From assembly GCA_043732705.1 (NCBI GenBank), contig JAYTHE010000011.1, positions 71,605 to 135,604 on the forward strand: DNA of 64,000 nucleotides, in the 5' to 3' direction. Both the position numbers and the translations under genes were made by a program. Position 1 is the stretch's first letter. Each line of letters starts with the position of its first letter. This stretch comes from Candidatus Omnitrophota bacterium. Lineage in GTDB: Bacteria > Omnitrophota > Omnitrophia > Omnitrophales > Aquincolibacteriaceae. The notes beneath the pieces were generated by a model that was not told the DNA's origin, searched no databases, and saw nothing but the letters and a program-made list of their open reading frames with translations. Shown in pieces: positions 1 to 24,300 of the stretch.

Positions 1-3000
1 AACGAGCAAATTCAACCAATCCTGCTGTTCCATGACCGAACCCATTTGAGACTTTTGCAGCATTCCATAGATCACGACCAAATTTAATGCCGCCCCAGGC
101 CGACGAGACCAAATATCAAGCAAGGCACGCTGAAGCGGTTGATCGGGAATGCTTAGCCACAAATCAAAAAATCCTGCGACAAGAGCTTCGTCTGAGCTGC
201 CGCCATGTTGAAGTTTTCCAAATAACGGTGTCGGCGGAAAATCATTATTTCGAGTCAATTCTTGCCCTTGAACCATTCCCCGCAACAGCTTTCGGCGGAT
301 TTCTTCAGGCAAAGCCAAATAAGCCGGACGACTGATCAGGGAGTAAATTTGAACAATATAGTTTGCCCAATGGTGGTCGGCATCGCGCTGAACAAAAGCG
401 ACCTGAGTTGCCGCGTCAGGTAAAAATTGCGGCTCGGATAGAATTTTAAATTCTGCCGCAATGCGGCGAATTTCATCTTCAGTAAAAATGAGTTCCCGCG
501 GGTGCCGTGCCGTGGCACCGCGGCTCCTATCGATATGAAATAGTCTTAAACCTCGAAAGAAATAAACCACAGCAACAACACTTCCAAAATCAAGCGGAAT
601 AAGTGCGAAGCAACGCGCATACAATTCAGCAAAAAAACTACGCTCTAAATAGGTCAGCTTGTTGAAATATTCATTTTGTAAAATCTGATTTAACATCCAA
701 AATGCGCCAGAATAAGGTGAAAGCTCACGCATAATCGCAGTGAGACGCATGTTTGAGATGGAATAATGCGGTTGAATTTTTGGCTCTTCGATTGCATGCG
801 ACTTGTGAAACAGCCTGTACCACCCCATTAAAAATGGAACTGCCAACCAGCGGAATGCCGTAAAAATTGCTTCTCCAAATCCCCGCGCTTCCGAGCGTTT
901 AGTGCCATTTCCCAACCACAGCGAGCCTGAATCTCCTGTGCGTGGCTCCGGTTGAACCGAAGAATCTGGCTGACGGGTGGCGCGCGCGTAAAATTGCTCT
1001 AATAGCTTATTCACAGCTGCGTGCAATTGCATGCGCTCCGTGGTTTTTCGGCGGCCTTTTCCAACGGGTTGTCCTTGAGTTTTTAAATGGAGGTCTGCAA
1101 AAATTCGATGTAATGCTTCAGCTTGCTCCGCAGACTTCACAGAAATAAGAATTTTCTGAATTTCATTGAAGAAAGCTCGTTCGGCGTTCAATTTCTTCAT
1201 AAATTCTCGCTCTGTTTTCAACGAAAGTGTCATTCCATCAAAATAGTATTCCCAAAACAACTCCTGTTGCTGCGCATTCCAAATTTGAAAGACCGAAGTT
1301 TGAAAGACCGCCCTTATATGCCCCAACTCAATCTTTGTGGCATCAAAAATGACGCGAATCCATTGAGGATGACTTAAATCCATGTCCCTTGCCAAAACTT
1401 GAACACGACGAATATAGGGCTTCGCCAAATCAAAAGGCACATCCCTCAAATTGGTATAAAGCCATACCCACAGCCACGCAGGAAAATCAGAAAATGAAAC
1501 CTGAGGGCGCATCACACGAATAAAATCAAGCACGCTATTACGCTGACTCAGATCCCACTTAGAGTAAATAAAATGGCGCGATAATTTCCAAGCTGCGTGT
1601 AAAGATTGAATGCTCCACGATGCATCGATAAATAATTGACGCCAACGCGCATCGTATGCGGCTTTTTCTTCCGGCGACACCTTCTGATAACCTTCACTTA
1701 AATCGGGCTGCCAACGCTTAAAAACCTTCCAAACTGTCTTTTGATAAAGCTGCGAAACCCATAACGGCAAACGCATTTCCGAACGCTGTAATTCAACAAC
1801 AGCCGCGACTGGACCACCTGAGAACCACAAACTACCTTTATCTCCATCCTGATTTTCAGTTGATGCCTCAGGTGGCATAGACATACGTTGATGACGTTCC
1901 AACAGTTGTTGGAGAAGTGGTAAAACTTGTTCAGTCGCTTGCCGCAACGTAATGTCCCGCAAGGTCGTTCGTTCTTGCTCAGTAAGCCTATGACCATTGA
2001 ATTGCATTAAACGGGATGCGATGAATGCAACAAAAGAAAAACGATGCCCCTTGGAGGTGCGGTAAAATTCCCTAAGTCGACTCATAAACAATTCCAATTC
2101 CTTGTCATTGCGAATTAATTTCAACCGCAAAACTTGCGCTAAAAATTCAAGCCCATAATAATCATCTCCACCAAAAAAGTGCCTTAGGCTACGCAATAAA
2201 GGATCTTGGAACCACTTTGCGAGAGGCAGAAGGCGTGGATGATTAGCAATATTAAGCAGTAAATATTCACCATCAAACCCGGCAATTCCATATTCAGAAG
2301 TACGCATGACTTTGCGTAATTTTCCAGCTTGATCAATCCAGTAAAGCGGATGGTCTGGAATTCCCATGGATGGTTTCAAAGTTTCATCCGGTCCAACCAT
2401 AAAGACCGCGCTTGCGTCGACCGTCCAGATCTTCCGTTCTCCGGAGAAATTCTTTCGAATCAATAGTTTATGTCCGGTTTTTAAACTTTCCACATACCAG
2501 TTACCGGGATTGCCGGGGCCGCTTTCCGCATTTTCGTTATAAGTCACGTAATCATTACCGACAAACTTTGGAAATGACGGATCTTTGCCGAAGGCAACGA
2601 TTCTCGTCCGTGTTTTACGGTCCCAAATTTCAGCCGGTTTTTTATCCGGATAATTAAATTTCCATAGCAGTACCTTGGTTTGGTCGGGCGAAACTTCAGC
2701 ATGTTCAAAACCATAGTATGTTTCTAATTGCCGGCCAGTACTTTGTTCAAAAATAGTAACCCGGCTGCCTTTCAAATCACTCAAAGCCAAAAAACCATTT
2801 TGTGAGAAAGTACAATGCCGAAAGTTCGTTCCATACTTTGTGACAGGCTCAAGCGTCGCGGAATCGATCAAAATTCCCACAAAGGTTTGAGGATACTGTT
2901 CACCGCCGTCATGATGGTAGTAATCCGCTTGGAAATAGCGTAGTTTTCCGTCAGGTGAATAGTCCGCGTCGTGACTAGGCCCTTGCACATGGTTGTATTT

Positions 3001-3300
3001 GTTGCGCCAAGGGTACCCATGCGCATCAAAATATTTTCTTGCGATTTCTTCGAGCTGGTCACGGGTTAATTCTGCCGGCTTTCGCTGCCCTGTTTTGATA
3101 TCCGTATAGCGATAACTTTGTTTCCAATCGCGCCGCTGGCCAAAATAACTGCGCCCACCTTCAGTAAATAAAATCGTATCGCGTTTCACGCCGCTTCGTT
3201 TTCGGTCAAGCCAGGTCCATTCACGCACAAGCTCTTGAGCCGCTTTCAAAGAAATTTTCCCCGTCGACCGCATTTCTGAGCGGGCTTTCGAACGAGAATT
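1..3300 (-). other. C-terminal propeller-like plus helical module of gene B (an eleventh, partly divergent super-repeat), truncated by the window edge.
   Basis: ARSEMRSTGK verified at ~3270. Blade-like SPDGKLRYF and SPDQTKVLLWKF segments. SLWFSGGPVAAVVELQRSEMRLPLW verified at 1765-1860. SLWLGNGTKRSEARGFGEAIF verified at 850-960. Degenerate RSRGATARHPRELIF at ~500. Confidence 0.45.
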
Positions 3301-6300
3301 TACAGCTTGTGAAGCTGCGCCGAGAATCCCCGCCAAAGCGGCGCGCTGAAACTTTGAAAAATTGCCTGAGCCTTTACGATTGTAAAAAACGCTGCGAATA
3401 ATTTCCTGCAATAATGTTTTAAGTGCAGCAGGCAGCTTCGAGACTTCGTCATCATGCAGATAAATCGACCATTCATGCCCGTAAACATCGGGCACAATGG
3501 CAGTATCATCGCCCAAACCAATACCGAGAAAATCTGTTTTGGTGCGTCCGATCAGACCATTATTTTTCCGAATTCGTTCGAGAATTGTTTGGATCGATTT
3601 AATATCACCAACACCATCGGTCAAAACCATCACAAAATGACGGTCACCGCCTGCTTTTTCAATATCGCGGATCGCGGCTTCAAGCGCCGGGCCTTCATCG
3701 TTCCCGCCATAGGCTCCAATACTATTATGTAAATCATCCACCACCGCGTCCCGGTCTTTTTTCGTCGAATACCCGTCGGGAATGGCTTCGTGTCCGGGAC
3801 GCTCATATTCCTTGCGTTTATCATCGGGAATTTTTTGGCCTTTGAAACGTTTATGCAAATGCGTTCCCGTGCCATAACCGCGAATCGCAAAATCAATGCC
3901 GAGTGCCTCAAGCACTTCCGCAATTAATGTCACGCCGATCAAAGTTTTATAACCTTTGTCCGTCGCCTTCTGTTCGGCTTTTTGCCCTGGTTCACCCATG
4001 CCCGCCATCGAACCGCTTTCATCCACGATAATCGTAAATTTGATATTTTTTTTCTGTGGAATGATCCGATGTTCAAAAACATTCAGGCCATTTGAAAAAC
4101 CATGCGCAATGGCTTGAATCAAATCCTGGACATTGAGCCGGCCTTTTTTCTTATGTCTTTCCCATTTCGGGCGCGTGGAATTCAAAATCAAATCCCGCAA
4201 ATAGCCGGTCAATTCATTAATCATGCGGCTAATTAAAGGCCAGGCCATCAACCGGTCGCGCTCACTCATCGGCCGCGCGCCTTCATGATCCCGTTTGGCC
4301 TGCTGAAAATCTTTGGCGTCTTTCGCTGTGCGGTCCACAGCTTTACCTTCGTCTTCATACTCTTTTTTCATTTCATCTAAAATTTGCCGGCGCACATGAT
4401 CCGGCAATGTCCGATATTCCCGCGCCCACTCTTTCCATCCTTTTGTCTGCCCCGATTGAGGGGGCTGGTTACCCTCGCCTTTGCCGGAACGCGGCATGGT
4501 GGCAGACGCATCACCCTCTTCGCTCTCGCCTTTCTCGTCACCTTCACCCGGCTCACCTTTTTGGCCTTTTTTCCCTGACTGAGATTGACCTGATTTTTGA
4601 CCGCGCTGTCCTTTACCGCCCTGACCTTGTCCTGGCCTCCCTTGACCCTGCATTCCTTTTTGGACCGACTTCACAAACCATTTATAAACACGGGGTAATA
4701 TAATTTCACGGATTAAAACTCCTTGCTGCAAAGATAATTCCTGCAAAGACTGCTCGGAGGGATAGCGGTCAAATTCCCAAACACCGCGGTCATTCTTTCG
4801 CACCGGTACAAGCGAAAAAACACCACGCATCGGCGATATACGCCTGCGTAATTGACTCTTTTCTTCGGCTGTTAAATGTTTTTGCTCTTCATAGTCGTTT
4901 AAAACACCAACCATGTCCTGTTCCGTACCGCCGCCAAAAATGCCGCCGTCGACAAGCTCTTGAGCGTCAGCCGCCAGCTCTGGATCGCGCTCACCTAATT
5001 TTTTGATAAAGTTCGGGATCATTTGCATCGCGTCGGCATCCCAACCGCGCTTCGCCATGAAAAGAAAAAAGTTAAGCAGCGCGTTGACATCATCAATCGG
5101 TTCACCCGGCTTACCAAAAACCATTTTCTGAATCAACTCTTCGGGATTTTTTTCTTTAAAAATAACTTCATCATTCGTAGCCTTCAGCGGCGTGGCGGCC
5201 CCTTGAAAAAGCATGCGCGCCCAGTTTTCAATACGCCCGTCTTCAAGAATGTTGAATACATGCGCGGCCACGCCGAAGGGATCAAAAAATTCCGCAAATT
5301 GATATAAATAGCGTGTGCCGTAGCGATGCATGGCTTCATGAATACCTACGCCGATGAGCGCATTCAAGCTGAGCACATTGATCATTTTTTCATCATAAAA
5401 AAGCGTGCGCGTTGACGGCTGCCAGGCCCAGCCTTCTTCGCTCGCTTTCAACGTAATATCCATGCCTTTTGTGACAGCCGAAAAAGTATCTTCGTAAATT
5501 TGCTTTTTCTTTTCTACCGGCATTTTTTCCCATTCACCTTTGGACGGCAAATTCTCAGGCAACCCACCTTCGCCAAAAGCTGCAATGGGTTTGGCCATCT
5601 TGAGTATTCCTCCCGGCTGCCCAACGGATGAACTTGACTGACTGGACATCGCTAAAAAAGGCGAGCCGCCATGAGGAATGTCTTCACCGCTCATCCCCGC
5701 AATTTGACGCCGCGTTCCGCCTAATGCCTCTGCGACATCCAAATCCGTGCTGGATTCTTCCGGTAACCCGCGTTCAATCATCGCTTGAACAAAAGATTGA
5801 ATCCCGCCAAGCATCATGCGGTATTGCTCGCCTTTACTACGTTGACTGCGCACCCATACTTCGCGAAAACGGCTGCGCAACGCCGGTGAAAGCGGCACAC
5901 GACCGGAATTCATTCCGGTCCGCCCCTCGAGAGGATTCATAGTGCCGGCAAGTCTAAAATTCGGATGAATATTGACCTGCACTTTTTGTCCCTGAATAGT
6001 CAGCGTACCGCGGTCAAAATATTCATTTAAGATTTCAATCACGGCGCTGTCCGCCATGTTCAACTCTTCTAAAACGCATAATGAGCCGCTTTCCATGGCG
6101 CGGATTAAATCACCCTTTTTAAACTGAAAAGTACCTGTCGTTTCATCAATCACAAAATAGCCAATCAACGACTCAACCGTTGCGGCTCCGAGCGCAACCG
6201 AAACATAAGCCCAGCCCAGTTCACGGGCAATATCCGCAAGCATTTCTGTTTTTCCGCCGCCGGATTGCCCAATCAGCGCCAGCGGCTGAGATTGATGCAC

Positions 6301-9300
6301 CCAAACGACCTCTCCTTTTTCATTTCTCCGCTCAACCAACCCTCCGTCACGGAAAAGTTTCATGATTTGAATGCGTTCAATCTGCGTCGACTGCAATTCG
6401 ACTAGCTTTTCAATGCGATCGGCTTGCGTATAAAGCCGCTCGTGGATTAATTTTAAAACTGCTTTCATCAAATCCGGGTATGTGCCGAACTCCTGTTTTG
6501 CCCACGCTTGGACTTTGTCATACAAAATAGCTTTGGGACTGCGTTCATCGCCGCCAAGCCGCGCCGCTTCCATTTCTTGTTCAAAATAACTGCGCAAGGC
6601 TTCCGGATCCAGCTTTGGCAATGCCGGTTGACCGCCTTGATAGGTCAATGCCACCTGTCCCATTTCAATTTGGATTTCTTTGAGTGTGCCCTCCAAAATA
6701 TCGTAAACCGTGAGGCGCGGCACCCAAACTCCTCCTAACTCAAGCCAATCCACTCCCTCGTTCGAAACGCGGCGCAGCCGGTGGAAAGTTTTAAAGAAGT
6801 CATCCGACTCAGGATTCCAATTCAAATATTGTTCAAATAATTTTCGCAGTTTTGAAAGATTATCCGGCAAAGCTTCCGCAGGCGGAACAGATTCGGGCGA
6901 GGTTTCGGCTTCCGCTTTTTTCTTCTTCTTGGAAGCGACAGGTTTTGCGCGGCGGGTTGCCGGCGACCGGCTGGCAGAATTTTTCATCCGTGCTTTCATT
7001 TCAGGATAATCATCGATTGTGGTTTGTCCGAGCAAACCGGCGTATTCAATCCAGGCTTCCCGTAAAAGTGCGGCTTGATAATCCGCGTATTGGGTGCCGT
7101 CCGCACCTGCGATTGGATTATGCTGGGCGCGGACTTTCGCGTCTTTGACAATACGCTCTAAATTGCGTAAAGCAAAACGATAGGTATCATCGATATTAAA
7201 CTGTTCAAAATAATTATGCCGGCTCCGATCATGAATATCTTTTTGCATGGTTGCTAATTGCACTAGCAACTCCATCGAAATATTAGTTTCTTGGAGACTA
7301 TATTTATGCATGAGAATTTCAGCCATTTCCTGCGGAGTGATTTCAGGCACGCGCATAATCTCAAAGCGGTTCATAAAAGCTTCGCTCATGCGATTGCGGC
7401 CGGAATAACTCGCCGGATTGCCGCTGACCAGCAATTGAAATCCGGTTCCGGGAAAAATTTTCCGGCCTTGATATTCAATATAACCAAGCGTCAACAATTG
7501 ATACAAAATACCGATCGCATCTTCATTGGCTAAATTAAACTCATCCAGCAGCACAACCTGGCCTGCGACACCCTGATCACGGTCACCCATCGCTTCAAGC
7601 AACAAACCTTTTTTAAATTCCAGATCAATCCCAATCGAGCCGTTATGGACCAACGCGGCGATGGAACGTGTTAAGTCGCGCAACCGGCCGTTGTTTTGCC
7701 TTGCCCCTTTCAAAACATATTCACGGATAAACTTTTTAATCAATTCCTGCTGCGACACTTGGTGACCAGCAGGAATTCCGGCCAAACGCTGCAATTGCTC
7801 ACGGCTAAAACCCAATGTTTGCAATGATTTTTCCAGAACTCGAAAATTGCGTCCTTGAAGGCTTTCCTGTAAAACTTGATAGCTTTCCTGCAAGGACAAA
7901 TTAAGCTCCACCGGCTGATACGAACCAAGCAAGTCATACTCATCCGTGCGTGGATTCATCTGAATACGGCGGAATCCGACTTGCTCGCTGGCGGTGACGT
8001 TTTGATTCCAAAGATGCACGGCCAATTCAATCATGGTCGACTTACCGCCGCTGGTTTCACCCAACAACATCATGGGATTGAAGCGCCGCGCATATTCAGG
8101 ATCACGATAAAATCCGTCCAGCAAATAGCCCATTTGCTGCCGGGCTTCTTCGGTCATTACAAAACCGCGCTCTTGTAATATGGCTTTGGATACACTCGCA
8201 ATAAACAGATTGCCGCGATAAATATGATAAGCATCCCCTTCGTCATGCCAGGCATAGTCTTGATTTTCAAAATGATATTGCGGAAAAACATCTTTACGGA
8301 CAAGAGCATGATCCGTTTCGTTCCCAAGCCGGCGGTCATAAATTCGTTTAAGTGCGTGACGCAAAGCGTCTTCCTCCGCGATACCGCGCCGCATATCCTG
8401 CGCGACCCAATCCACAACCTTAACGACGTCGCGCAAGCTGGCGTAATAACCCTCGTTGTCGTCATTTTCTTTACCGATTTGCTGGCCCTCAACTTTTGCC
8501 GCGAAAGCAAAATAAGTCCGGCGAATTTCTTCGACTGTTTTTTTTGAAACCTCAACTTGCCGGTTCGAAAATTTCTTGCGAATGATTGCTTCCACTTCTC
8601 CCGAAGTCTTTTCATGCGCCACCCAAACTTCCGAAAAACGGCTGCGCATAGCGGGTGAAAATCCGGCACGCCCGCCGCTTGCCCCCGTCACGCCTTGCAG
8701 CGGATTCATCGTCGCAAAAAGCCGAAAATTAGGATGGATTTTTATTTTTACGCCTGTCAACGGGTTGGTGAAAGTGCCTTCATCAAAATATTCATTCAAG
8801 ATTTCAACCAGACCGGAAGGCATCATGTTAATTTCTTCAAGTACCAGAATCGATCCCTCTTGCATGGCCTGCACGAGCACACCGGCGACATAACGGAATT
8901 TTTTTGTTTCTTCGTCACGTTCAAAGCTACCGACTAGCCTTTCCATATTCGCGTTTGCGAGTGAAACTGAAACATATTTCCAATTTAAACGCCGCGCGAG
9001 ATCCGCCACAATTTCGGTTTTTCCGCCGCCGGATTGTCCGATTAAAAGTACGGCTTGACGAGGATCCATCAAACCTTTGGCTACGGCAAGCCGGATTAAG
9101 TCGGTCTGTTCGGAGTCAGCCAGCTCTTCAACTACTTGCGCATCCTGCGAAGGCCCTCCGCGCTCATAATGCCGTCCGCGCAAACGGAAACCTCCAACTT
9201 CAACTGTAGGCCGGCGGCTGATTCGATCGATGCCGCTGGAAAATGAAATTTTGATTTGACTGGGATTAAAGTTTGGAAAAAATTCTGGGGCTATAAAAAG

Positions 9301-12300
9301 CCGGCGAAAGGCGGCGGTTTCTATCGGACTGCGGCCAAGAATGCCGGAATATTCGAGATAAGCTTGCTCAAGAATCATACTACTTAGCTCACGCGCGCTC
9401 GGCGGCGGCGCGCGTCCTCGCATGCGAATTAAGTAACCAGTATTCTTGATAATTTTTTTCAAATTTCGCAGCGTAAACATATAACCCTGTGTTGTCCCTG
9501 CACGTGCGGACGGAAAGTCACCTTCGGCCAAATGCTTGTTTAAGTGATCCTGGAATGCCGCTAATTTTGAAATAACATCATGCTCAATGGTGGTTCCGCC
9601 AAAAACCTTTTTATTGCGCATCATTTCGGTTTCGACAATTTCCGCCGCCTCGGCTGCCGGCATATTTTTTACAAACTGCATTTCAAAACGGTTCATGAGG
9701 GCTTCGCTTAGCTGATTCCGGCCTTCATAGGTGGTAGGATTTCCGGTAGCAATCAGCTTAAAACCCGCTGCCGGGTAGATTTTCTCAACTTGCCCCGAGT
9801 CCTTGTTATAAGTTTCGATAAAACCCAGCGTTAGCAATTGATAAAGCACCGCGAGCACTTCTTCGTTGGCAATATTCATTTCATCCAACATCGTAACGTG
9901 TCCGTGTTTCATGGCATTCAACAACCGTCCCTCACGAAAATCGAGTTCGACATTTAAAACTCCGTTATGCGTGAGCAAAGCTAACGATTTAATTTTTCGA
10001 ATGGCATCTTCCTTAATCTGAGGATCGGACGAATCCGCAGTACGCAGCCATTCGGTAATTTTTTCACGCATGGCCGCGATTTCAGCACTCCAAATATCGT
10101 CCCATTCAGCCGAAAGCGTTTGATCATCCGATATTGCCGACTGCCCATACTGAATGAGATCCATGGCCCGCTTTAATTTGACCCACTGCCCGCCTTCCAT
10201 GGAGTTTTGGATGACGCGAACGGCCTGGTCCGTGGAAATATTCATTTCACGCGGCTCGTATGACCCAAAAAGATCATAAGCATCGGTTCGTTCACTGAAT
10301 TGAATGCGCGTATAACCCTGCCGTAATAAGTTCAAAGCAAAAAACCGCACAAGCGAGCTTTTACCACCGGCAGTTTCGCCGATTAAAAGCACGGGATTGA
10401 ATTTACCATTCTGAACGTCAGAATTTTCAAGCGCCGTGGACTCTGCCAAAGTCATGAGATTTTCTAAAGTGCGCCGATTTTCCACCAAACGTGAATCAGA
10501 TAAAGTGTTGTTTAGTTTAACCTGCACCGCGCTATCTATTTGCTGACGCGGCATACCTTGCATCGCGGCTTCCATTTCGTGCCGCAACTCATTCTCAAGT
10601 TTTGAAGATTGAACACCGAAATCAAATTCAGCAACAAGCTGCTGATCGTCAAAAAACTGCAACCGTCCCGCGTCCAGATGGTAGCGCGGCACTTTAACTT
10701 CAAACTGTTTAATATTTGCTTTTTTCAAAACTCCGCGCACTGTTTCACCATCGGCCGCGTTTTGCATTCTCAACTCGTAAACACGATGCATCGCACGCGC
10801 AAGCGCCGCATCCATTTTCATTCCCCGCGCATTCCAATAGCCCATTGCTTTTACGACACGCCGTAAGTCACGCAAGCTGGTGTAATAAGCCGGCTCACCG
10901 CGATGACGGAACACCTCACGATACTCTTTAAAGAAAGCCTGTATTTTAAGCGATACAGCAGAATCAAATTTCAAATCATACTGTTCAAAAAGTTTTTGTA
11001 GAATTTCATCCATTTCGGAAGCAGATTTTTCAGCCGGAATCCAAACTTCGCGGAAGCGACTGCGTAACGCGGGCGATAAATGTACACGGCCGCTATTTTG
11101 CCCCGTCACGCCATCCACAGGGTTCATCGTCGCGAAGAGACGAAAATCCGGCGACACCTTGACTTTTTGAAGCGTGAACGGATTGGTAAAGGTTCCTTCA
11201 TCAAAATATTCATTCAGAATTTCTAAAATTCCGGGCTTGGCCATATTAATTTCTTCAAGCACAAGCGCCGAACCTTGATTCATCGCCTTAATCAAAACAC
11301 CAGGGCGGTACACAAAGCGTTTTTCCTTTTTGTCATATTCCATGCTCCCCAACAAATCTTCCAAAGTTGCGTCGCCGAGTGAAACAGAAACATAATCCCA
11401 GCCGAGCTTGTACGCTGCGTCGGCAATCACATCGGATTTACCGCCACCCGATTGCCCCACAACCAGCACGGGTTGATTTTGACGAAAGCCTTTAACAACC
11501 TGGGTCATGGCATATTTTGTAGATTCAACAAATACAAGCGGCTCCGTCCAGCGTCGAACAGTCCGTGCCTTGCCATGGGTCTCAATACCGTCGATTGAGA
11601 CTGTTTTGGATTGATCGTTATGGCGCATCTCAATTGTTTTAAAATTTCGTTCAATTAAATTATCAAATGCGTCCTGCGCCGTCGAAAACTGACCGCGAAA
11701 TAAATCTCCCATTTGCACGCAGAAAATATTGCGTAAACGCTCATAACTTAAATCATTCTTAATCGCATCGGAATTTAAAAGGTACACATCGGAACGCAGC
11801 AAAACTCCGCTAAAAAGCATAAAGGACTCGCGAATCCAAGATTCGAGGTTTAACTCCTGACCGACCTGTTTACGCTCTAAAATATCCCGATAAATTCGCA
11901 AGTAATCGCGAATCGTAAACATGTAATTACTGTCGGCGCCCATATTGAAGCGTCCACCAAGTAAATACTGATTCAATCCTCGCTGGGTATCCGCAAGCGC
12001 GATCAATTCCCTCTGTGTCACGCCAAATTCCTGCTGCAAGTAGCTGTCGATTCGCTTTTGAAATTCAATTTCGCTTTCACCTTGAGCTCGCATGAAATGT
12101 TCGGGGGTATACCCTCGCAAACGGATTAAATCTTTTTGCATGGTTCCGTACAGAATTTCAAACATTTCCTGGCCATTCATTTCTTTGACCCAGAGAATTT
12201 CAAAGCGATTCATGAAGGCCTCACTCATGCGCTTTCGACCGGCATAACTCGAGGGATTCGCCGTCGCGATGACGCGCGGACGACGGCTGGTTTCAGGTTC

Positions 12301-15300
12301 AATAATTTTTCCGTGATATTGCAGCCACCCCATAGTGAGCAGCTGGTAAAGAACCCCCAGCATTTCTTCATTTGCTAAATTGACTTCGTCGAGCAGAATT
12401 AAATCACCTTTTTTGTAAGCCGTAATAAAACGCCCTTCCATATAGCGCAACCCGATTTCATGATTCATTAAATAGGCGAGCGTCCGAATCTCATCAGCCT
12501 CTTTTTTTTGATTTTCGTCAAACTTTACAGCCCCTAACTGAGTCAGCATCTTCCCACGCTCGATTCGATTCTGAATACGTTGAATCAAACGGCTTCGAAT
12601 CGCGGCTTGTTGCTTCTGACGCATCTCATCGCCCGTCGCAGTTCCGATAATTCCCGCACGTTCCTCCTCCGTAAAAAAAGCAGACCAAAATTGACCTTCG
12701 TTGCCTGTGAGCATCCGGCTTAAAGCTTCTTCCAGGTCATTCCATTCGCCACGATCCAAAGCTTCTTCCAATCGCTCCACTGCCTCTTTCAAAGAAATTT
12801 GCATTTCATAAGGCTGGAAAGAACCAAACAAATCAAATTCGTCCGTGCGTTCGTTGATTTGAATGCGGGTATAGCCGGAACCAGTAATCTTGGCTGCCAG
12901 AGCCGCCAGCGTGCTTTTGCCTCCGGCAGTGTAGCCAAATTCAAGAATCGGATTAAAACCTTTTTCATCATCCAAATCCATCGCGAGCAGCAAATGCGCA
13001 AGATTTTTTCGCGTGGTTTGATTAAAAATAACATCTTGAGCAATGTCACCCGGCTCAAGCGGCTTCTTCAATTGAATACGCAGCAATTCCCACGGCGGCG
13101 ACTGTTCCGTGCTGTGAGCGATAACTTCTTTTCCCGGCAACCTCTCACCCGTATCTGTCGCATTTTCCCGTTGAAGATATTGTTTTATTTTTTCACGGCG
13201 TCTTTCGGTAATAATAATTTCGCGGCTGCCTGCCTCATAACCGGTAATATCATAAATGGAGTCCAATTCTTCTTTAGGATCAATGAGACGGTTCGCGACA
13301 AGCGCCATCCGAACACGGCTGCGGTCTTCGTCGCTGTTTAAGCGGTGAACATAACGACGGCGCAGAGCAAGCTCAAGCGCTTCGCGAATATCCCGTTTAC
13401 CGTCAAAATAACGGCGGGCGATTTTGAGAGTTTTCTTAAGATCGCGTAAACTGACATAATAAGCTTCATCGTTGACTTGCCCGATTTCGTGTTTTGTCAC
13501 CATCTGCTCAAACTCATAATGAAAATTAACGACACGCACGAAATAACTAAAACATTGCATGAGTTTATTAAAATCATCCAGCGTATTTCCGGCATGATCT
13601 TTGTAAAGATCAAAAAGTTCCTTTAATAATTCAGCCGTACCCGAACCCGCGGAGCGGCTGATTTTGGCGATCACTTCCAACATACGGTCATATTCCTGCT
13701 GATTTTCAGAAAGTCCGTATTTATCGCGCAAAGCACCGAATGGAATTTGATCAAAAGCTTCCTGTCCGACATATCCCAAAATCAACCCGATTTGCTTGAA
13801 GCGATCCACGCTTTGACCAATAATTCGCAAATACTTATCGCCGGTTTCTGTATCACGCCCTAATAATTTGCCGGTAACAACTCGCAAGTTCTCGCGGCTG
13901 GTGTTTGAAATTGCCGCAAGCGCTTCAAGCAAATCCAGTTCGGACGCCATCGGAAAATAATTTTCCTTAAGCACGCCTAGTCCATTCTGACAAATTCTTT
14001 TAACTTCACCGAAATCAAGCAACGGACCCAAATTATCTTCAGGATTAATGCGAGCCGTATTAAACGTGATCGTCATCATTTGGCGCAAATGCCGCATGTC
14101 TTTTTTGACCAGCGCTTGCATTTCAAGCTCATCCCCTTCTATTTCTTCACGCGCATTCAGCTTATAAAGCAAACTTTTCAATCCTAATGAAAAAACAGCC
14201 CCGATGATATTTGCGTCATAAGGACGAAGTTCCGGATCTTTCTTGCTAGCCTCATTTCCGGGAGTCACTGCGACATAATCACGTCCTGAATAATGCAGCC
14301 TGTATAACTGCGAAATTTCACGCATTACTTTCAAATCCTCAACTTCCCCCATGTCTTTGCGTGCTTGCTGATACCAATCTTCAAATATTTCCGGCCAATC
14401 CTGGCGCGCAATGACATGCTCAAGCACTTCGGTCAATTGTGGTTTTTTCGCTAAGAGATAATTTACGACAAAGTGATCCAGCTCAAAATCCGCCACTTTT
14501 CCCGATCGCCCATAAAAAGTTTTCCATTGAAATAGCGATTGCAGCCTTGCCGTAAATACCTTCAATTTTTCCGGAACAGATTCACTCAGCCGGTCTGTCG
14601 TACCGGAAAAAATTGCCGCATGCACGTAGTTGATACGCTCATTCACTTTGAGAGGATCTAATTCATCACTATTTTCATAATGAGAAATCAGTGACTCCGG
14701 CAAAGTCGACAAAACTAAGTAAGCACGGAGCTGCCGCATCCATTCATCCGGATGATCGATGCGTTGACGCGCTTCTGCTTCAATCGATGCCAACCGCGTG
14801 TGCATATTTTTTTCAGCTTCATCCCAATGATGCGTCATCCATTCGGGTAAGTCGCGGATAAAACCTGCCATTCCCGATTGTTCTGCTTCAGCACGAAACT
14901 GCGTAATAAAATTGCGAATTTCTTTTTTAATTTCACGGATTTCAGAGCGTGCTATTTTTTTCTTTAATGAGTTTACGGGCGCAGCGCCTTCCCCCATAAG
15001 CCACAAGGGATTGCCGTCTGGCGAACTATCCGCCGGACGGACACTCTTTCCGGTCACGCGTTGATTCCGGAACCGCCATGCTTTTAATTTGTTTTGAAAT
15101 TCACCGGGATTTTCCCAAAGCTGCAGAAATTCTTCGCGCGGAATTTCTTCCCAGTTTGCCGTATTGTTAAACTCCAAAAGAAAGGCTGCCAACTCGCGCA
15201 TCTTGTCAGGATGATTTTGCAATCCGTCCAAACTATCCACAAACCATTTAAAGTCTTCCTGAGTCACGATGTAACGACTATCAACCAAAGCTGATAAAAT

Positions 15301-18300
15301 CAGCATTGCGCTTAAAGCATTTGCACCGAAATGTGAAAAAAGTGAGTCGGGGCGCAGGTCCACAACATGATCCAAGGTTGTTGGGCTATCTCTCGGGCTC
15401 GCCGGCGGTAGGACTTGACGCATCAATGCGCGCGTTTCCTGGGGTGCTATTTTTAAACCGGCAAGCGGCAAACCCCAATCCGTACCATCAATATTCAAAA
15501 GCCGGTACTTTGTATCGCTTGTACCGTCGGCCGGGACTTTGGATTCCGATATTTGAAATTTTGTACCTGCCTGCTTGAGCGGATAATCTAAATCGTCTGC
15601 AATAACGTGGCCGTCGCCCAAATTCCGCACACTAAATTTCTTTGTTTGTTTATTTTCAATCCAAAGCCTGCCACCCATAGGATCAAAACTCGGCACAAAC
15701 GATTTTTCCCATTTTTCTAATTCAACACCGGAAGCAACATCCCGCATTTCAAAATGATCTATCTTTTCTAATAGAACCAATTTTTCATCCGGAGAAAATT
15801 GAACGCGCAATGAGTCATTCCCGGCAAAAGCAAGCGCTTGAGACACCCCTCGCAGCGGATAAACAAATTCAGTGCTATGTTTAAGCCCACCAACACTGCG
15901 CTGAACGATGCGATAAGTTCCTTTGGGTGAAAATCGAAAACTTTGAATTTGCATATATTGCTGCAGGCTTCTGGCTGACCGCACGTCATACAATTCAAAT
16001 AAGCCGCCCGAATGCAGGATGAGCGAGCGACTGTCAGGAGAAAAGGACGCATCCAGAACACCAGTCATATTGAAACGCCGCAATAATTTTTTAAGCCTCA
16101 AATCATATAAATTAGCCCGTTGAGTTCCGTCCAACTCAATCACAAGACAGTAGTTTTTATCCGGCGAAAAAACAACGCTTGAAAAAGCTTCGTTCGGATC
16201 GACAAATTCATCATTTTTATCGAGCGCAACTACCTGTTTGCCAATGTCGGTTAGTCCGGTCAAAGTAAAATATTTACCATCAGGAGAAAATGATCCGCCA
16301 AATTCATTGCCAATTTGCCATGCACCATTTTTGCTGCCCGAACCCTGACCGAATTCGTGCAAGCGTTTTCGATGCTCTAAATCCCAAATTTCCGCGGAAG
16401 ATGAATCCTGGATTGGCATAAATAATTTCTTGTCATCTGGAGAAAAAACCGCTGAATTCGGATCTGATCTTTTTCCTAAAGAGTAAAGCCAGCCCTTGTC
16501 AATCCAGCTGTCATCAAAATTGATTTGGCGCTGGCTTAATCTAAAGATCAGCACTTCTTTAACCATCTCATAAAACGAACGTAAGCGCCAATCGCCGGAT
16601 GCGCGCATTTCGGAACGCGCTGGCTTCTTTTCGTCCTCTAGCCACAAAGGATCACCGCCGGGCAAATCTTTGCCGGTCTTTTTCTTGTCATCATCCGCAG
16701 GTTGACGAGCATCGCGTTTTTCCCAATCCTGGAACCGTGCTTTAAAATTTCGCGGATGCTCCCAAAGACGAACAAAAGTCTCGCGAGGCACTTTTGACCA
16801 GGGCGCCAAACCTTCTAAATGCTCCATAAATTGCGCGAGCGCTTCCATTGCCGACGGGTCAGTATTCAGCTCATCTAAGCTTTGTATAAACCAATTCAAG
16901 TCCTGTTGCGTGAGAATATAATGAGCGTTAATCAATACACCCAAAATCTGCATGGCATTAACCGCATTCTTCTCAAAATGTCTAAAAAGCGATCCGGGCT
17001 TTAAATCCACAACAAAGTCCGATGTATTGGCCTCATGCCTTGGAGATTGCCAGGTTCGACGAATTAAGGCTACCGACTCATCACCAGCTATTTTGAGGTT
17101 GCGCAGAGAATGCGCGAGCATCAGTTTTTGATCATCATCTAAAAGCTGATAATCACCGTCCGTACTATCTCGAAACATTCTTCCACGGCTTGATTGAAAA
17201 TTTACTCCCTGTCTTTCGATGGGAAACTCCAGATTATCCGCAAGAATGACGCCGGTTTTCAAATCACGAACGCTAAATCGTTCTGCGTTTACATTTTTAA
17301 TAAAAAGTCGTCCCGCTACGGGGTCAAAACTCGGCTGCTGCGGGTATTGAAATGCTTCAATCAATACTCCTGTCTGAGCGTTTCTTAATTCAACAATATT
17401 TTTTTTCTTCAACAGCGCAAAAGCTTCATCGGATGAGAAATCAACATGCTCCGTGTCACGGTCAATCCAGGCGAGCGATTCCGTTCCTTTTATTGGATAA
17501 ACAGACTCCGTCGCTGGACCTCGCGACCGCGGTCTCTTAATAATGCGGTAAGTTCCGCGTGGTGAAAATCGGAAATTTTGAATCTGAGCATAATGCTGGA
17601 TCAAAGTGCCATGCACCGGCTCACGAACTTCCACTTCTTCGCCCGCTAATAAAGAAAAATAACGGCTATCAGAAGAAAAAGCCGCTTGTTCAATTCCGCG
17701 CAAATTAAAAGTGCGCGGCGCTTCCTTGGAATCCAAATGGTACAGAGTTGCCTGCTTCCAATCTTCTCCGACCGTCAGACAAAACCTACCGTCCGGAGAG
17801 AACACAACCTGGGAAAACCATTGAGTTTCAAGAACAAAACCATCTGCGGGATTAAGCGCAAAAATGCGTTTGATGCCGTTCCGTTCACCTTCGATTAAAT
17901 ATTTTTCGTTTGTAGAAAAGTGAAGGTTGTAGACAAAGGCGTTGGACGTAAAATCAGCCATACTTCCTGCTTGAACTCTTTTTAACCGGCGCAAAAGCTG
18001 TAGTGTTTTTAAATCCCAAATTTCCATCCAAGCCCCGATCGCAGCGCAAAACTTACTCCCATCACGCGAAAAATCAGAGAAACTAAAGTCGAGTTCGGGG
18101 CGCGTCCGCCAGTCGAATTCATTTTTTCGGCCTTGGATTTCTTTGTTTTTTCGATCCTCGATCAAAGTAAAGGTTTTAATTTCTCGGACCAAATCCAAAA
18201 ATGTGCGTGTTTTCCAATCACCGGCGGTACGGACTTCTGAACGCTTTGAAGCCTCAGCCACACCCTGCAGCCAAAGTCCCGCATCACCCTTGCTTGCGTC

Positions 18301-21300
18301 CGGCGGCATTAATTTTTCAGCGCGGCCTGCCTCACCCTGTTCGCGCGACATACGCTCAAGTGTTGCCATTGCCAAAGCAGCGGCATCATCATGACGCTTC
18401 AAAATATCAAAAATGACCGTGCGTCCTTTTTCCAAATTAAATTTTGAATTTCGAATGATTTTTTCAATACCTAACGCGGCAAGAGGAAGTATTTTCGCCG
18501 GAATTTTTTTAAGCAATTGCGTTACCAAGCTATAATCAGCGCTGTCTCGAATCACGCCCGCGTCAAACAATGAAGCAAGTAAATGCATGACATAGGGCGC
18601 GTCATCTTTGAGGCGACGCTGGATCTTGCTTATTTCGGGATTAAGGTTCTTCCAATTCCAAAGCTTGAATTGATAATGATAATCATCTTCATCCACCCAT
18701 GTTATTAATCGACCTGCATATTCACCCCACCGAGCATGAAAATCTTTCGCCTGATCACCGTCATAAGGAATTCCTAAATAAAAAATAATTTCTCCGGTTT
18801 GTGAGTCAAATAAATAGCGACTATTTTCTTCATCTTCCGCATCAGATGTCGTGACAACTGCGCCGTCTGGAGAGAACTCAAAATTACTATTCCCCCTCTT
18901 GCTCTTTAATTTGGCAATGGGCGCTAAAGTTACATTATCAAAGACAGTCGCGCGGCCATCGGGAGTGAGCGCTGCAAACCGCTCACCGGTTTCAGAATAT
19001 TCGGGGCGGCTTACCGGTTCGGACAATTGACGAATTGTCCGGCTTCGAAGATCAAAAACACTTTTAAACTGTTCGGCGCTTGGGGCATGATTTTTTGATC
19101 CTTGAAACCAAAGCCAACGGTTTTGCGGGTCTTGTTGAATCGTAATAGAAATGTCCGTCATCAACGGAAACTCCTCACCACTTCTTAAATCGAGCACAGA
19201 CAAGTGCTGTTCCCCCTTCGGATCCTGTTCACCATCAGTCCGCAAAACAAGAAAACTCCCTAGAAAGAAAATATAGTTATATGCCTTAAAATGACGCGGC
19301 AAGGCTCGCGAAGTAAAATGTTTGGTTTCATAAACATCATTGTTCAGTAAAATCCATTGGCCGTCATCGGAGACACCACTTTTATCGATAACCTCCGGTT
19401 GCTTTCCAAAACCATGCAACTTCTCTCCGGTGGAAAGATTCATCCAAAACAGATGGTTTTCCACATCCAATACTAAAGCAAGATCATCCTCTTTTCGGCC
19501 GGCCGGAAAAAGAACAGCTTCTACCGGTCCCGGCAAAAACACCGGTGGCTTTCCGGTTTTAAACTCAATTAATCCGCGTTTAGCACCAGATGATTTAAAA
19601 TAAAAATACTTTTCACCAGGAGAAACCCAAGCAACTTCAGCAATGCCTGTATGAATGGCCTGTTCCGCCCCGCTAACCAAATCATAGTTTCGAAATGCCC
19701 TTCCACTTAAAAGCAGTAGTTTTTCATTTGTGGCCCGGACCATTTTCCCGGGGACGCGTCGCGCTTGAACGGCGCCCGTTAAATCCATCACCAGCGTCCA
19801 GCTCGAATTGCTCAAAATCCACCACCGGCCGTCTTTTGAAAAATAACTTTCCTGAGCTCCGGGCAATAATTTTTCAGGACTGCTCCAATCTTGAAGCGCT
19901 TTTTTAAACGCTTCATAATCTTTAGTGCTGATCTTTCGTGATTCTGATCTTCGCTTTACCAAGACAACAGCAGCAGACCCGCCCCCTAAAACACCCGTCA
20001 GCCAAAGCTCGTTGGTGCCCGGTTTCGGCAAACCCAAATCGATCTCTTTACCGGATCGCTTACGCTCGATCCGGCTTAAATACAGCTGCATCTGAGTTAA
20101 AAACGAATCAGGCGAGCCCGATCTTAAAATACTCGCAACCATATTCTTGGCGTCGGCTTCTTCGTGCTGAAACAAAATCGCTTCAAGAGCGATAGAAATT
20201 CCCTTTAAATCTTCACATGGTATTTGCTGTAGATGATTTAAATAAAACTGCCAATCCGCCTTTGTTTCGAGTAAATGCAACTGATTCAGCCATGCCAAAA
20301 TATTTAAAATAAAAATACCGTCGAATTTCCAACGGTTAAATATTTTGCGCGACAGCATGTCCGTGATTTTTATCGGCAACCATTTGGCAAAATGGTGCCC
20401 CATTAAATTGACCAGCATAGTATCGCCTGGAGCGGACGGCGGATGAGTTAAATCGATTTGGCGGTACGGCTGCAATATTTTTCCGGTCACTGCATCCATT
20501 ATCATCTGTTGGCCGCCTTGTGTAATATTCCTCATGTCATAAATCCGGACATACAAATATTCGCCTTGGCGTGAAAAATAAAAAGTTGTGCGGCCCGGAA
20601 TGCGACGAATGAGCCGTCGCGTTGAGGTCTCATGCAATTCAAAAGTATCCATACCCTTTCGCTCCGCATAAGTTTTTCCGTCAGAACTAAACGCAAGCAT
20701 TCTCACATGATTTGAATTTTTATGACCGCTCAATTCCCCTAAATAATGACTTGCATCCATGCCCGTCTGAATTAAATTGAAATATTCATCGGGGTCATTC
20801 AGAAATTTTTCATGCGACCCCCACTTGTCATCCCATTCCCGAATAATTTTTTTAGACGGCCACTCCCAAAGCATGTGATGTCCGTTGTCATCACGAGTAT
20901 GGACTTGACCCAATCGATCAGACACAAGCACCAGCTTGTCTTCAAACTCTTTAACAGATTCGCCCGTGCGCATATCATAAGCACGAAAATGAAAATCGTT
21001 TTCGCTTCTAAATTGATTGTTCATGGGATACGTCATGACCAATCCGGTACTCCCATAAAGCGCCGCCAAATCATTTGCCGCCAGATTAAGATGCGACTCC
21101 TCTTGTAAAATAAATTCTAAGCCTGACCTCGCAATTCTCTCAAACATCATCCCCTTAATTCTGTCGCGCCTGCTGGCGCTTTCCCGTACAACCACTCTTT
21201 CTTTCCCCAAAAACTCAATCGCAGCATAAATATCAACATCGGGCTGAACGACTATATTTTCGTGGGTTTGATAATTACGCAAAACATGCTGCTCAGCTTT

Positions 21301-24300
21301 TTCATCATGCAGAATGATGAGCGGGAATTCGGAATGAAATCGATGAAATATTGTTGAAGTCGGGAATGGAAAAGTATCGACCACCGCACCTGTCGCCAAA
21401 TCAAGCAACCCTTCAGCTGGTTCATAGCTTCCGAAAGTCAAATTGTTGTAAAACACCATGCCGTTTCCAACTGAATAAAACTGCTTGTCGCGCGGGAAAT
21501 AATCAAGCGGAATCAACCGCTCACCTTCAACCCGAAAGACAAGCTCGAATCCGTCGCCGTTTCCACGTTCATGCTTCGAAGCTAATAAATATTTTCCGCC
21601 TTCAATTAATTGCGCCGCCCGAAACCTCTCTTTGGCCGGCCAATGAAAGCGTTCAAGCTCAGTTTTCATCCCCGCCACGTCTTTTTTGCTCACGCGAATG
21701 GGGCGCATTTCGGAGCGGACAACAACGCCACCTTGCCCGTGCTCTGTCCCAGCCAACCACAACGCGGGTGAATTTCCGGTTGGATCCGAAGGCTTAGCGA
21801 GATCAGGAATATGGGGTGCCGCAACCTGCCTCTGAAAACGATCACGTAGCGCCTCCATCAATTTTCCACACTGCGCGTTATTTAAAGCATGCTGAATCGA
21901 AGGCAAATCTTGGTTGCGACGAAATCGTTGCGACCGTAAAACTTGCTCCATAGCTACGGAAGCCAATTCAATTTGAGCTCGACCCGCTCCAGACCACAAC
22001 TTTAAGAGCCGATTCATTTCATCGGCCGATGCGATCCAGCCCCATTGATAAGCTCGCGCAAGCAAATTCAAAACATACGGATAAGCCAGGCCAAAATCTT
22101 TTTTTAAATTTTGCAGCGCGTCATCATTTCCAAACGGGATCAATCGACTGGGATGATGATTGGCCAAATATTGAGGCGCATACAATTCCCTTTGTTCAAA
22201 GACATTGTTAGATTGAAAAATTCCAACTTCGGGAACCTTCAAAACCACTTTGCCGGTTTCGCATTCAACAAGAAAATGATTAAAGCCAGCCTTGGGTTTA
22301 ACATAAGCATATTTTTCGTCACGCGAAAATTCGGCAATAAAATACACTTGGCCGGGCACCCGTGGCAAATTAAAGCGTGAGATAACTTTAAACGATAGCG
22401 GATCAATAAATGCCAACTGTTCACGCCGCTTATCTCTTGAAATTCCCAGGGATGCAAGTAGCCACTTCCCTTTTGGACTTATACGAATCGATGAATCATC
22501 GTAACTTAGTAACCTTCGTCCTGTCCAATCTTGCCGGTGCAAGTCCCACTGATGCCACTCTCCATAAGCGGATTCCCCGGAAGGCTGGCTTCTAAAGGGC
22601 CACTTATAAAAATATGCCATTCTCCCCGACGGGTCAAATTTAACATCAACAAAACCCTCGAACCTTTTGAAATCCACACTTTTTTTACCTGTTTTAAGAT
22701 CAAAAAGAATAATCGATCGTGACAAATAAAGTGACAGCCATTGGCCGGAAGAATCAATAAAATTGGATATATGATCTGGCATGGAAAGCGGTTTAAATGT
22801 ATCTAGATCATAAATCTTTTTCCCTGTCACCAACCTATGAGTCAAATTAGAAACACGGACAGTCCCTATCCCTGCATTATCCGAACTAAAATTGCGAATC
22901 AACGTACCTTTTGAACTTATGAGGTCAAATCTCTGCGACCATTGAACGATAAATCGTCCATCGTCCAAATGGGTAGCATCAAGGGGATGATCCCCGCTCG
23001 GCACCTGATAAGAAAAAATTAATTCCGTTTTTTGCAGGTCAAAAATATAAAGTTTTTTTCGACCGACGGCATATAGATATCTTGCCGAATTTGCTTGACG
23101 TAACGAAACCAAACTCCTCTCACCGGTTAGCTTTAATAAATTTGTTTCAACACCGGTACTTAAATCATAAAGCAGTGGGGTCTTTCCAATAGACTGAGGT
23201 GAGTCTGAATCCGTAATTAAGACCTGGTTAAGGTCTGTAAAGTGAATATGCAGCTTGCCTGAGAGCCAATGCTTGACCGCTTTACCGGTTGCGAGATTCA
23301 CCAACCAGGTGGATTGCGGATTTGCACCCTGAATCTGATTAGAAACAAGCATCCACTTGCCATCTTTTGAAAATTCAGCACCTTGCGGGTTTGATGTATA
23401 TTTTTCTAAAGCTAAATATTCATGCAGCACGGGCTTGAGCGCTTCGAATTGCGCCGCGCTTATTTGTCTTAATTCGGAGCGCTGCTCTGCAAGAGCATGC
23501 TCCGTGAGCCAAAGCTCTTGATCAGTCGCGACATCACCAGGATTTTTCGGTCTTGAATTCTCCCCTCTTAGGCGAGTCGCGCGCGCGGCTAAATGCTCTA
23601 AAATCGTACCTAGTTTACCTTCACCCGGGTTTCTTAAAAAATTCTCAATCGAAGCACGCACTTCGAGGGACTTAAAATTAATAGCATTGCTGCGTTGAAT
23701 GAATGCGTCCCAAATATCTTTGAACGCTGCATTCGATTTGATATGCCCAAACGCCTGAAAATAGAGGGCAAATGTAGACTCATCGTAAATCAATCCCAAT
23801 TCATCAAACAAAGCCAGCAAAAAAAGTTTCGAAAGCCATGCTTCCCCACCCAACTCTTGCTTAAGTTGAGAGTCGTCTTGATGCATTTGTTTTGAGTAAA
23901 GCAGCATCGCCTCATATTGAGGATCGCTATTGGGTGAGCCCACCGGATTAACCAAATAAATAAGCGGCCAATCGTCCATCGCTAGGAATGACCGCACATG
24001 AAATCCGTCAGGAAGTGCGATCACTTCATGTGATTTCTTTTCAGCGTGAATCACATGCAGATTAGGCCCTGATTCTAAAATACAAAGGTTAGGGCCGCGG
24101 GCATCGAAAAATTTGTCTCCGCCCCTACCATAATCCCCGCCTTTTAAATTATCCTGATAAATAATTCGAGGCTCACGGGAAGCAGCATCCCAGCTAAAAA
24201 CTTTTACTTCTGCAAAAGGCGCTAAGGCGGAATGATAATTTTTATAAAAAATTGAAAAATTTCCGGCATCTTGAAAAATAAAACCCGAAGGAGTTTCAAT

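Follow-up and report, generated by a model that had tools for sequence, protein, structure and literature searches.

What is the signature of a metallopeptidase doing between the ATPase ring and the MIDAS domain (named for its metal-ion-dependent adhesion site) of a giant bacterial protein? The question is raised by a stretch of 64,000 nucleotides from a Candidatus Omnitrophota bacterium (contig JAYTHE010000011.1, positions 71,605 to 135,604; hereafter the window), in which a first-pass annotation had read an HExxH motif of the giant gene here called gene B as an unusual protease module within a giant AAA+ mechanoenzyme. Our analysis leads to a different description. The segment is the N-domain of a CobT-like co-factor, a type of protein made up of a zincin fold, a charged linker and a von Willebrand factor A (VWA) domain with its MIDAS, and in gene B it is fused to its own motor; we draw this identity from relatives bearing CobT_C, matches in phages, AAA_5 neighbours and the literature on the CobT N-terminal domain (CobT_N). 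A domain of this kind normally partners both CobS/MoxR AAA_5 rings and the VWA domain behind it, and the locus should be framed as an ancestral CobT-type co-factor domain whose active site is still intact, rather than as an anomalous midasin protease. That the domain is a genuine CobT_N-type zincin-fold domain with a site under selection we hold with high confidence; towards the full reading, a CobT-like zincin co-factor domain that includes peptidase activity, we lean more guardedly.

Gene B, like every other feature located below, lies on the minus strand. Its frame is open from 32556 to base 1 of the window (at least 10,852 amino acids) and continues beyond it; from the probable start Met at 32460, where six-frame translation gives a signal- or transmembrane-like opening (MKQKILHKILFNTGCVAILV...), the gene (1..32460) encodes at least 10,820 amino acids, since the frame leaves the window at base 1. 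Residues are numbered so that residue r starts at window coordinate 32556-3(r-1). Six tandem AAA_5 modules of the MoxR/CobS/dynein-midasin type, delineated with Pfam (AAA_5, expectation values (E) of 7e-45 and 8e-50) and by self-search, occupy residues ~6530-8905 (5842..12969), with Walker A motifs at residues 6541, 7034, 7393, 7840, 8166 and 8763; a simple regular expression for the hhhEE Walker B pattern detects it in modules 2, 4 and 6 only. The core of the sixth module ends near residue 8905, and the zincin domain (residues 9021-9300; 4657..5496) begins ~120 residues after this module. The domain contains a predicted three-stranded beta-sheet (TLKASEEGWAWQPSTRTLFYD; 5392..5454) that holds W9043, the HEAMH motif at residues 9073-9077 (5326..5340), which supplies two putative metal-binding His and a putative general-base Glu, and NILEDGRIE at residues 9102-9110 (5227..5253). 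It is followed by a low-complexity linker of 95 residues (9301-9395; 4372..4656) rich in Gly, Gln, Lys and Glu, and by a VWA/MIDAS region (3352..4359) with DESGS at residues 9512-9516 (4009-4023) and the beta4 motif VMVLTDG near residue 9642. The VWA assignment draws on weak matches to Pfam VWA (E 0.011) and to the Midasin MIDAS structure 6qt8 (E 0.41), and on tblastn, which matches phage CobT-like proteins at 2e-4. Gene B extends beyond this region by more than 1,000 residues.

The observed order is thus ring, zincin, linker and VWA, with H9073, E9074, H9077, N9102 and D9106 strictly conserved. The literal claims of the first-pass annotation stand: GIHEAMHRYG and NILEDGRIE are both present in the gene B frame, the second His is separated from E9105 by the 28 residues it had counted, and the site lies where it had been placed, between the sixth AAA module and the MIDAS.

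On its own, the occurrence of the motif carries no significance. Given the composition of the open reading frame (ORF), chance alone should produce 0.44 HExxH motifs over its 10,852 residues, and at 7% Glu it is all but certain to place a Glu 20-40 residues downstream; we regard the motif as non-random because it is conserved in relatives. With residues 9021-9300 as query, an exhaustive HMMER search covering 1.84 billion representatives returned 22 relatives, all 22 of which keep HExxH, and a profile search of an indexed database added 12 further relatives, with HExxH kept in 11/11 of those that cover the site. The zincin domain alone was the query with which the search succeeded; a combined query of zincin, linker and VWA in a word-index homology search returned nothing, probably because the linker filled the list of candidates. 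Scanning GTDB genomes with a 4-sequence alignment gave 14 loci, mostly labelled as metagenome-assembled genomes (MAGs) of Candidatus Omnitrophota/Omnitrophica, with several labelled only 'uncultured bacterium', one Chlamydiae and one Elusimicrobiota. These loci are 32-48% identical to the window and all carry HE[AS]MH and FN(I/T/A)(L/I/V)ED(G/P)R(I/V)E. Over a 115-residue core, median pairwise identity among relatives is 28%. A wider aligned set of 44-46 sequences was chosen by matching the motif as a regular expression; what can be said without that bias is that no relative found by homology lacks HExxH. The loss of the His and acidic residues in homologues, which would have spoken for a spurious motif, is not seen.

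Conservation also bears on the identity of the third metal ligand. Across the 17-sequence alignment there is no variation at W9043, H9073, E9074, H9077, Y9083, N9102 and D9106, and E9105 and E9110 stand at 90% or above. N9102 and D9106 are invariant wherever the region is covered, the wider set included, and W9043 is found in 42 of 44 sequences of that set. E9105 is present in 45/46 of the wider set and is replaced by Arg in P0004 and by Asp in P0002; E9110 falls below 90% and is Asn or Asp in several relatives. The sole invariant acidic residue of the second helix is therefore D9106, which, judged from the alignments, is the best candidate for third metal ligand and a likelier one than the Glu proposed originally. 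Of the proposed signature of HExxH plus downstream Glu, the HExxH half holds, and for the other half the invariant acidic residue is an Asp and not a Glu; given the replacements of E9105 and E9110, the gluzincin label becomes uncertain.

Does this conserved site reside in a zincin fold, or in an all-helical linker? A single-sequence AlphaFold model was poor, with a predicted local distance difference test (pLDDT) score of 45, and was not used; AlphaFold2 with the 17-sequence alignment reached a pLDDT of 87.9 and a predicted template modelling score (pTM) of 0.85. In model numbering, the predicted elements are a helix (2-8), three strands (15-19, 24-26 and 31-35, assigned with DSSP), a helix (44-60) with HEAMH at its middle, a long helix (76-96) bearing the N-x-x-E-D-x-x-x-E motif and a helical region with a short hairpin. 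The sheet, modelled at a pLDDT of 83-95, directly precedes the active-site helix, as in zincins, and the helix that follows would display the invariant N9102 and D9106 and the near-invariant E9105. The predicted segment thus has the zincin order of elements and not that of an all-helical linker, in agreement with the zincin reading of the first-pass annotation.

Comparison with solved structures points in the same direction. A Foldseek search of the model against the PDB places the minigluzincins selecase and jannalysin on top (probability 0.85-1.0, E 0.3-1.3) and also lists the ArdC metalloprotease domain, BlaR1 and an M1 aminopeptidase. An independent profile search of 177,635 PDB sequences returns selecase as best match (E 0.15), with sheet and HExxH in register. 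For a model-based comparison, these weak structure and profile signals converge on one small family, the minigluzincins. Among the relatives, P0010 has a faint SprT match over the same stretch.

The relatives identify the domain more closely. Those of ~600 amino acids carry a C-terminal CobT_C VWA domain (Pfam), and in P0020 and P0028 faint Pfam CobT matches fall exactly at the ED.R.E motif, at the corresponding profile positions. Foldseek against BFVD returns phage proteins annotated as 'VWFA domain', 'cobalt chelatase CobT subunit' and 'metallopeptidase domain' (E 3e-4 to 1e-2), and phrog_459, a 'peptidase' family, matches P0034 at 4e-74 and also the HExxH region of P0020. Genes similar to P0034 occur in 463 phage records, mostly of T4-like cyanophages. 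The 'peptidase' of cyanophage Syn30 (YP_007877924; 721 amino acids) carries HEVGH and NVLEDARIE, followed by an acidic linker and then by a VWA domain with DWSGS, and its gene is close to a 359-amino-acid gene annotated 'porphyrin biosynthesis', which from this annotation we take to be cobS-like. On three metagenomic contigs (L003, L004 and L005) the gene for the HExxH protein directly follows an AAA_5 ATPase gene, and in L005 it precedes a CobT_C gene, forming a three-gene operon. All three contigs also carry integrase or transposase genes, and L003 and L004 additionally carry Rep3 and ParA/ParB, which suggests that the intact-site version travels on mobile elements. PADLOC contains no model for operons of AAA_5 and HExxH-CobT_N genes, and a known anti-phage defence role finds no support in that resource.

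Published work on CobT supplies the structural counterpart. The crystal structure of CobT_N comprises alpha1, a three-stranded sheet and eight helices and is described as resembling the M48C peptidase domain; the domain binds CobN as well as the small subdomain of CobS, and the VWA domain, joined to it by a ~90-residue disordered linker, inserts its shaft into the CobS pore (bioRxiv 10.64898/2026.07.21.739949). Iyer et al. describe MoxR-vWA pairs of jumbo phages (group 2.2) whose vWA partner bears a metallopeptidase domain at its N terminus (PMC7824862). The features that define such a co-factor are found together in gene B: the alpha1, three-stranded sheet and helical bundle of the model agree with the published description of CobT_N; a charged linker and then a VWA domain with MIDAS follow; and the AAA_5 partner is present, fused in gene B and in the genome loci and encoded by the adjacent gene in L003-L005. 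The linker at residues 9301-9395 corresponds to the disordered linker of CobT and to midasin's D/E-rich tether.

The arrangement is not peculiar to the window. In 14/14 genome loci the HExxH lies 306-358 residues past the last Walker A found, and in 12/14 a DxSGS MIDAS follows 367-456 residues past the HExxH, the frames of the other two ending earlier. The order of six AAA modules, zincin, G/K/E-rich linker and VWA recurs in the loci, with linkers of 32-121 residues where measurable; the linker figure for L018 is an artefact of an earlier chance DxSxS. The open frame of L016 stops 264 residues past the HExxH, before any VWA, and that of L006 begins only ~630 residues upstream; these two represent either split genes or assembly frameshifts of the giant gene family.

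If the family is that of CobT_N, the state of the site in canonical CobT becomes informative. We compared the clade with cobT genes located beside cobS in Rhizobium, Cereibacter and Sphingomonas plasmids (L020-L022) and with the solved CobT 9uka. Canonical CobT reads ...ARG.ADAFALRL..HD... and ...AVE(Q/A/T)AR.E..., and hhalign aligns its AVEQARVE-type motif with the NALED.RIE of the clade (E 0.01-0.013). In an ungapped register the two His of the clade correspond to Asp and Leu in CobT (D-[S/A]-x-A-L); extended hhalign alignments are of low confidence and place HExxH differently. Because the registers disagree, we limit the claim to the absence of a complete HExxH from canonical CobT, without exact residue correspondence: in no register is a complete HExxH conserved across the three canonical CobTs. 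An Acinetobacter plasmid CobT-like protein encoded next to a MoxR gene has DQEVAK instead of HExxH, and in a Burkholderia CobT-like protein the site is fully degenerate. From these alignments, the known and probable adaptor lineages have lost both His, the Asn and mostly the Asp. They keep the Glu equivalent to E9105, which suggests a structural role for this residue. That the clade retains the whole set across bacteria, plasmid-like contigs and phages is our main reason for holding its site to be under selection for metal binding and probably for catalysis. The gene B family falls outside CobT proper, the window segment having no NCBIfam match and its relatives scoring 15-39 bits against a TIGR01651 cut-off of 759.

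Of the readings considered, the likeliest is that the domain binds a metal and is probably a catalytic peptidase that operates together with the ring and the MIDAS domain. H9073 and H9077, together with D9106 (or E9105), would hold a divalent metal, probably zinc, and E9074 would act as general base. By analogy with CobT_N on the CobS lid, the zincin domain probably docks on the lid subdomain of the ring, from where it could cleave a polypeptide held by the MIDAS domain, remodelled by the ring, or both; candidate substrates are a captured client protein and gene B's own linkers bearing RSEMR motifs. An improbable, more elaborate version would make the assembly of ring, zincin, linker and MIDAS an ATP-driven, MIDAS-targeted protease, in which a Glu-bearing peptide, possibly one of the protein's own RSEMR linkers, is captured and handed to the zincin in cis; the giant gene would then encode a self-processing polyprotein, and the assembly would be intermediate between CobS/CobT-type pairs and eukaryotic midasin.

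Several points weigh against peptidase activity or against the assignment itself. The only characterised homologue, CobT_N, is a non-catalytic adaptor, and Liu et al. see the 'peptidase' label on phage cobT as a mis-annotation (PMC8651126). Sequence homology to canonical CobT_N amounts to a local hhalign match (E 0.01) in which the register of the HExxH helix is uncertain. Each match to a solved zincin is weak (E 0.15-0.3) and spans the first ~100 residues only, and scans of the window's domain against Pfam, NCBIfam and PADLOC gave no hit, and against PHROGs no usable one. The alternative that draws most on these points is a pseudo-peptidase adaptor, in which the domain would do no more than dock the VWA co-factor on the AAA lid while HExxH...D retains a structural metal or an uncut peptide. 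CobT_N is an adaptor, in contact with CobN and with the small subdomain of CobS; MoxR-vWA systems commonly contain inactive peptidase domains (PMC7159879); and D80 of CobT, for which a salt bridge to the CobS lid has been reported, occupies the place of the first His in the ungapped register, itself insecure, so that the old cleft may be the docking face and the former active-site face may have become a docking surface in the chelatase. What renders this alternative unlikely, if deserving of serious attention, is that, at ~28% identity, neither the general-base Glu nor either His varies among bacterial, plasmid-like and phage lineages, that the known or probable adaptor lineages have replaced these residues, and that the Glu would be superfluous in a purely structural metal site. 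The same Glu beside the first His, a hallmark of hydrolysis, argues against a His-His-Asp site that holds an ion for delivery to a client in the manner of CobST and NorQD. The family's relationship to cobaltochelatase CobT and the insertion of metals by MoxR-VWA pairs speak for such metal handling, but canonical CobT, the true metal-insertion member, is without the site and no CobN-like gene is present in the window; as the true chelatase subunit lacks the site, we consider a metal-delivery role very improbable. A functionless chance HExxH in a helical linker, for which the expected number in the ORF and the blank Pfam result on the segment could be cited, is already refuted by the invariance of the motif in all relatives and its location in a confidently modelled sheet-plus-helix domain with zincin matches, and its probability is practically nil.

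A special case of an active peptidase, suggested in the first-pass annotation, is polyprotein self-processing, in which the zincin would cut at the RSEMR motifs and free modules that include a midasin-like unit of ~3,900 amino acids. Gene B contains 12 copies of the pattern R-[SGAT]-E-[MVLIAF]-R, where shuffles give 0.3; they start at residues 583, 1195, 1786, 2419, 3026, 3614, 4772, 5314, 5870, 9759, 10258 and 10554 and usually lie 5-25 residues beyond an LWL or LWH that itself comes after a low-complexity stretch. With none between RSEIR at residues 5870-5874 (14935..14949), the last upstream of the AAA ring, and RSEMR at residues 9759-9763 (3268..3282), the first downstream of the VWA, the sites bracket exactly the unit of ring, zincin and VWA. 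The motif is enriched in seven relatives (P0001, L006, L007, L009, L011, L012 and L014), and the first site lies at a similar offset past the VWA in L006, L007, L012 and L014. Set against this, P0002, P0003/L017, L013, L015, L018 and L019 have an intact site and no motif, the same domain occurs in three-gene operons and in phages that encode no polyprotein, no zincin specificity is known for the RSEMR sequence, and the invariant Glu of the motif could equally be a MIDAS ligand. The motif may be where the chain is cleaved, serve as a ligand of the MIDAS or mark the boundary between modules. Its pattern fits polyprotein processing and, given the intact-site relatives without it, is not tied to the zincin; self-processing is thus conceivable, its coupling to this site is not borne out, and as an account of the domain we judge it decidedly improbable.

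Beyond gene B, nearly all of the window, which has a G+C content of 44.7%, is taken up in a six-frame scan by a second giant ORF in tandem with it on the minus strand, gene A, whose frame is open from 64000 to 34340 (at least 9,887 amino acids) and continues beyond the window. The gene content of the window consists of these two genes only, with no CobN or B12 context. The first-pass annotation had also pointed to two HExxH motifs in gene A, and these are present, LAHEYNHL at residue 9080 (36749-36763) and ILHEAVHA at residue 9626 (35111-35125), against 0.11 expected; a tie to any family was not obtained, as they have no Pfam or PDB sequence match and no relative among the fetched loci or proteins. 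A faint GNAT match (Acetyltransf_1) lies between them, at residues ~9363-9406. Outside the AAA modules, Pfam finds almost nothing in either giant ORF, apart from faint beta-propeller-like matches at gene B residues ~4500-4580. Hydrophobic stretches are found in gene B near residues 10560-10670.

Part of this picture is already in the literature or in annotation: that MoxR/CobS ATPases have a zincin-linker-VWA co-factor, that CobT_N resembles a peptidase fold and that phage cobT is labelled 'peptidase'. We found no description in the literature of this co-factor fused behind a six-module midasin-like ring in giant proteins, nor one that explicitly sets CobT_N clades with an intact site against those with a degenerate site; on midasin-like proteins of bacteria, or on this module in the giant genes of Omnitrophota, the literature yielded only an AAA_5 entry in a domain legend. 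If our reading is true, one domain exists in two states, a dead adaptor in cobaltochelatase and an intact, active-looking site in the clade made up of core genes of T4-like cyanophages, operons and giant proteins, and residues H9073, E9074, H9077 and D9106 offer a test, at residue level, of whether phage cobT has rightly long been called a 'peptidase'. For Omnitrophota giant proteins, post-translational cleavage through C39 and S8 peptidase domains has been proposed (bioRxiv 10.1101/2023.11.21.568195); our reading, if true, adds to them a further candidate peptidase and a candidate recurring site.

Several known systems can be compared with gene B. The minigluzincins selecase MJ1213 and jannalysin, soluble models of M48/M56 catalytic domains, are the best matches of its zincin domain among solved structures and PDB sequences and share the sheet and HExxH helix in register, but the match is weak (E 0.15-0.3, template modelling score ~0.47 over ~80 residues), the invariant acid of the gene B domain is an Asp located 29 residues past the second His, and a further helical region of ~180 residues follows. 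Cobaltochelatase CobT with CobS (9uka, 21vu and 21vt) has in common with gene B the topology of the N-domain, the disordered linker, the MIDAS VWA domain, the AAA_5 partner and the (A/N)xxE(Q/D)xR(V/I)E helix; unlike the gene B clade, CobT has neither HExxH nor the Asn/Asp pair, and it scores far above the TIGR01651 cut-off where the gene B family scores far below. A profile search with the zincin domain matched neither CobT chains nor midasin among the PDB sequences, although both are in that file. The CobT-like 'peptidase'-VWA proteins of phages and plasmids share with gene B an intact HExxH, N-x-x-E-D-x-R-I/V-E, a charged linker, a VWA domain with DxSGS and an AAA_5 ATPase partner. Their ATPase is a separate, single-module protein that must oligomerise, whereas gene B places six modules and the co-factor in one chain of more than 10,000 amino acids; identity is only ~20-30%, and the gene B domain has extra helices and a hairpin.

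The ring itself is closest to that of midasin. Against PDB sequences, the AAA_5 modules of gene B match eukaryotic Midasin with E 1.4e-75, far ahead of CobS (3e-9) and NorQ, and the six-module arrangement recurs in the related genome loci, mostly of Omnitrophota MAGs. The origin of six-tandem AAA proteins has been placed in early eukaryotes (PMC3495828); a prokaryotic six-tandem midasin-like AAA chain with a MIDAS domain merits a phylogenetic study. What gene B has in common with midasin (Rea1/Mdn1) is a single chain with six AAA_5 modules in tandem, a charged tether and, through the weak 6qt8 match, a C-terminal MIDAS domain. The midasin layout of a long helical linker after AAA6, a D/E-rich region and a terminal MIDAS is not that of gene B: in midasin AAA6 is followed by a helical linker of ~1,700 amino acids, whereas in gene B the zincin follows within ~120 residues with no long linker, Gly, Gln, Lys and Glu abound in the tether, and the VWA is not terminal, more than 1,000 residues following it. 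Midasin has no known zincin domain, and no midasin is listed among the top 50 Foldseek matches of the gene B domain. The module of gene B thus joins the in-cis ring and tethered MIDAS of midasin to the N-domain of CobT.

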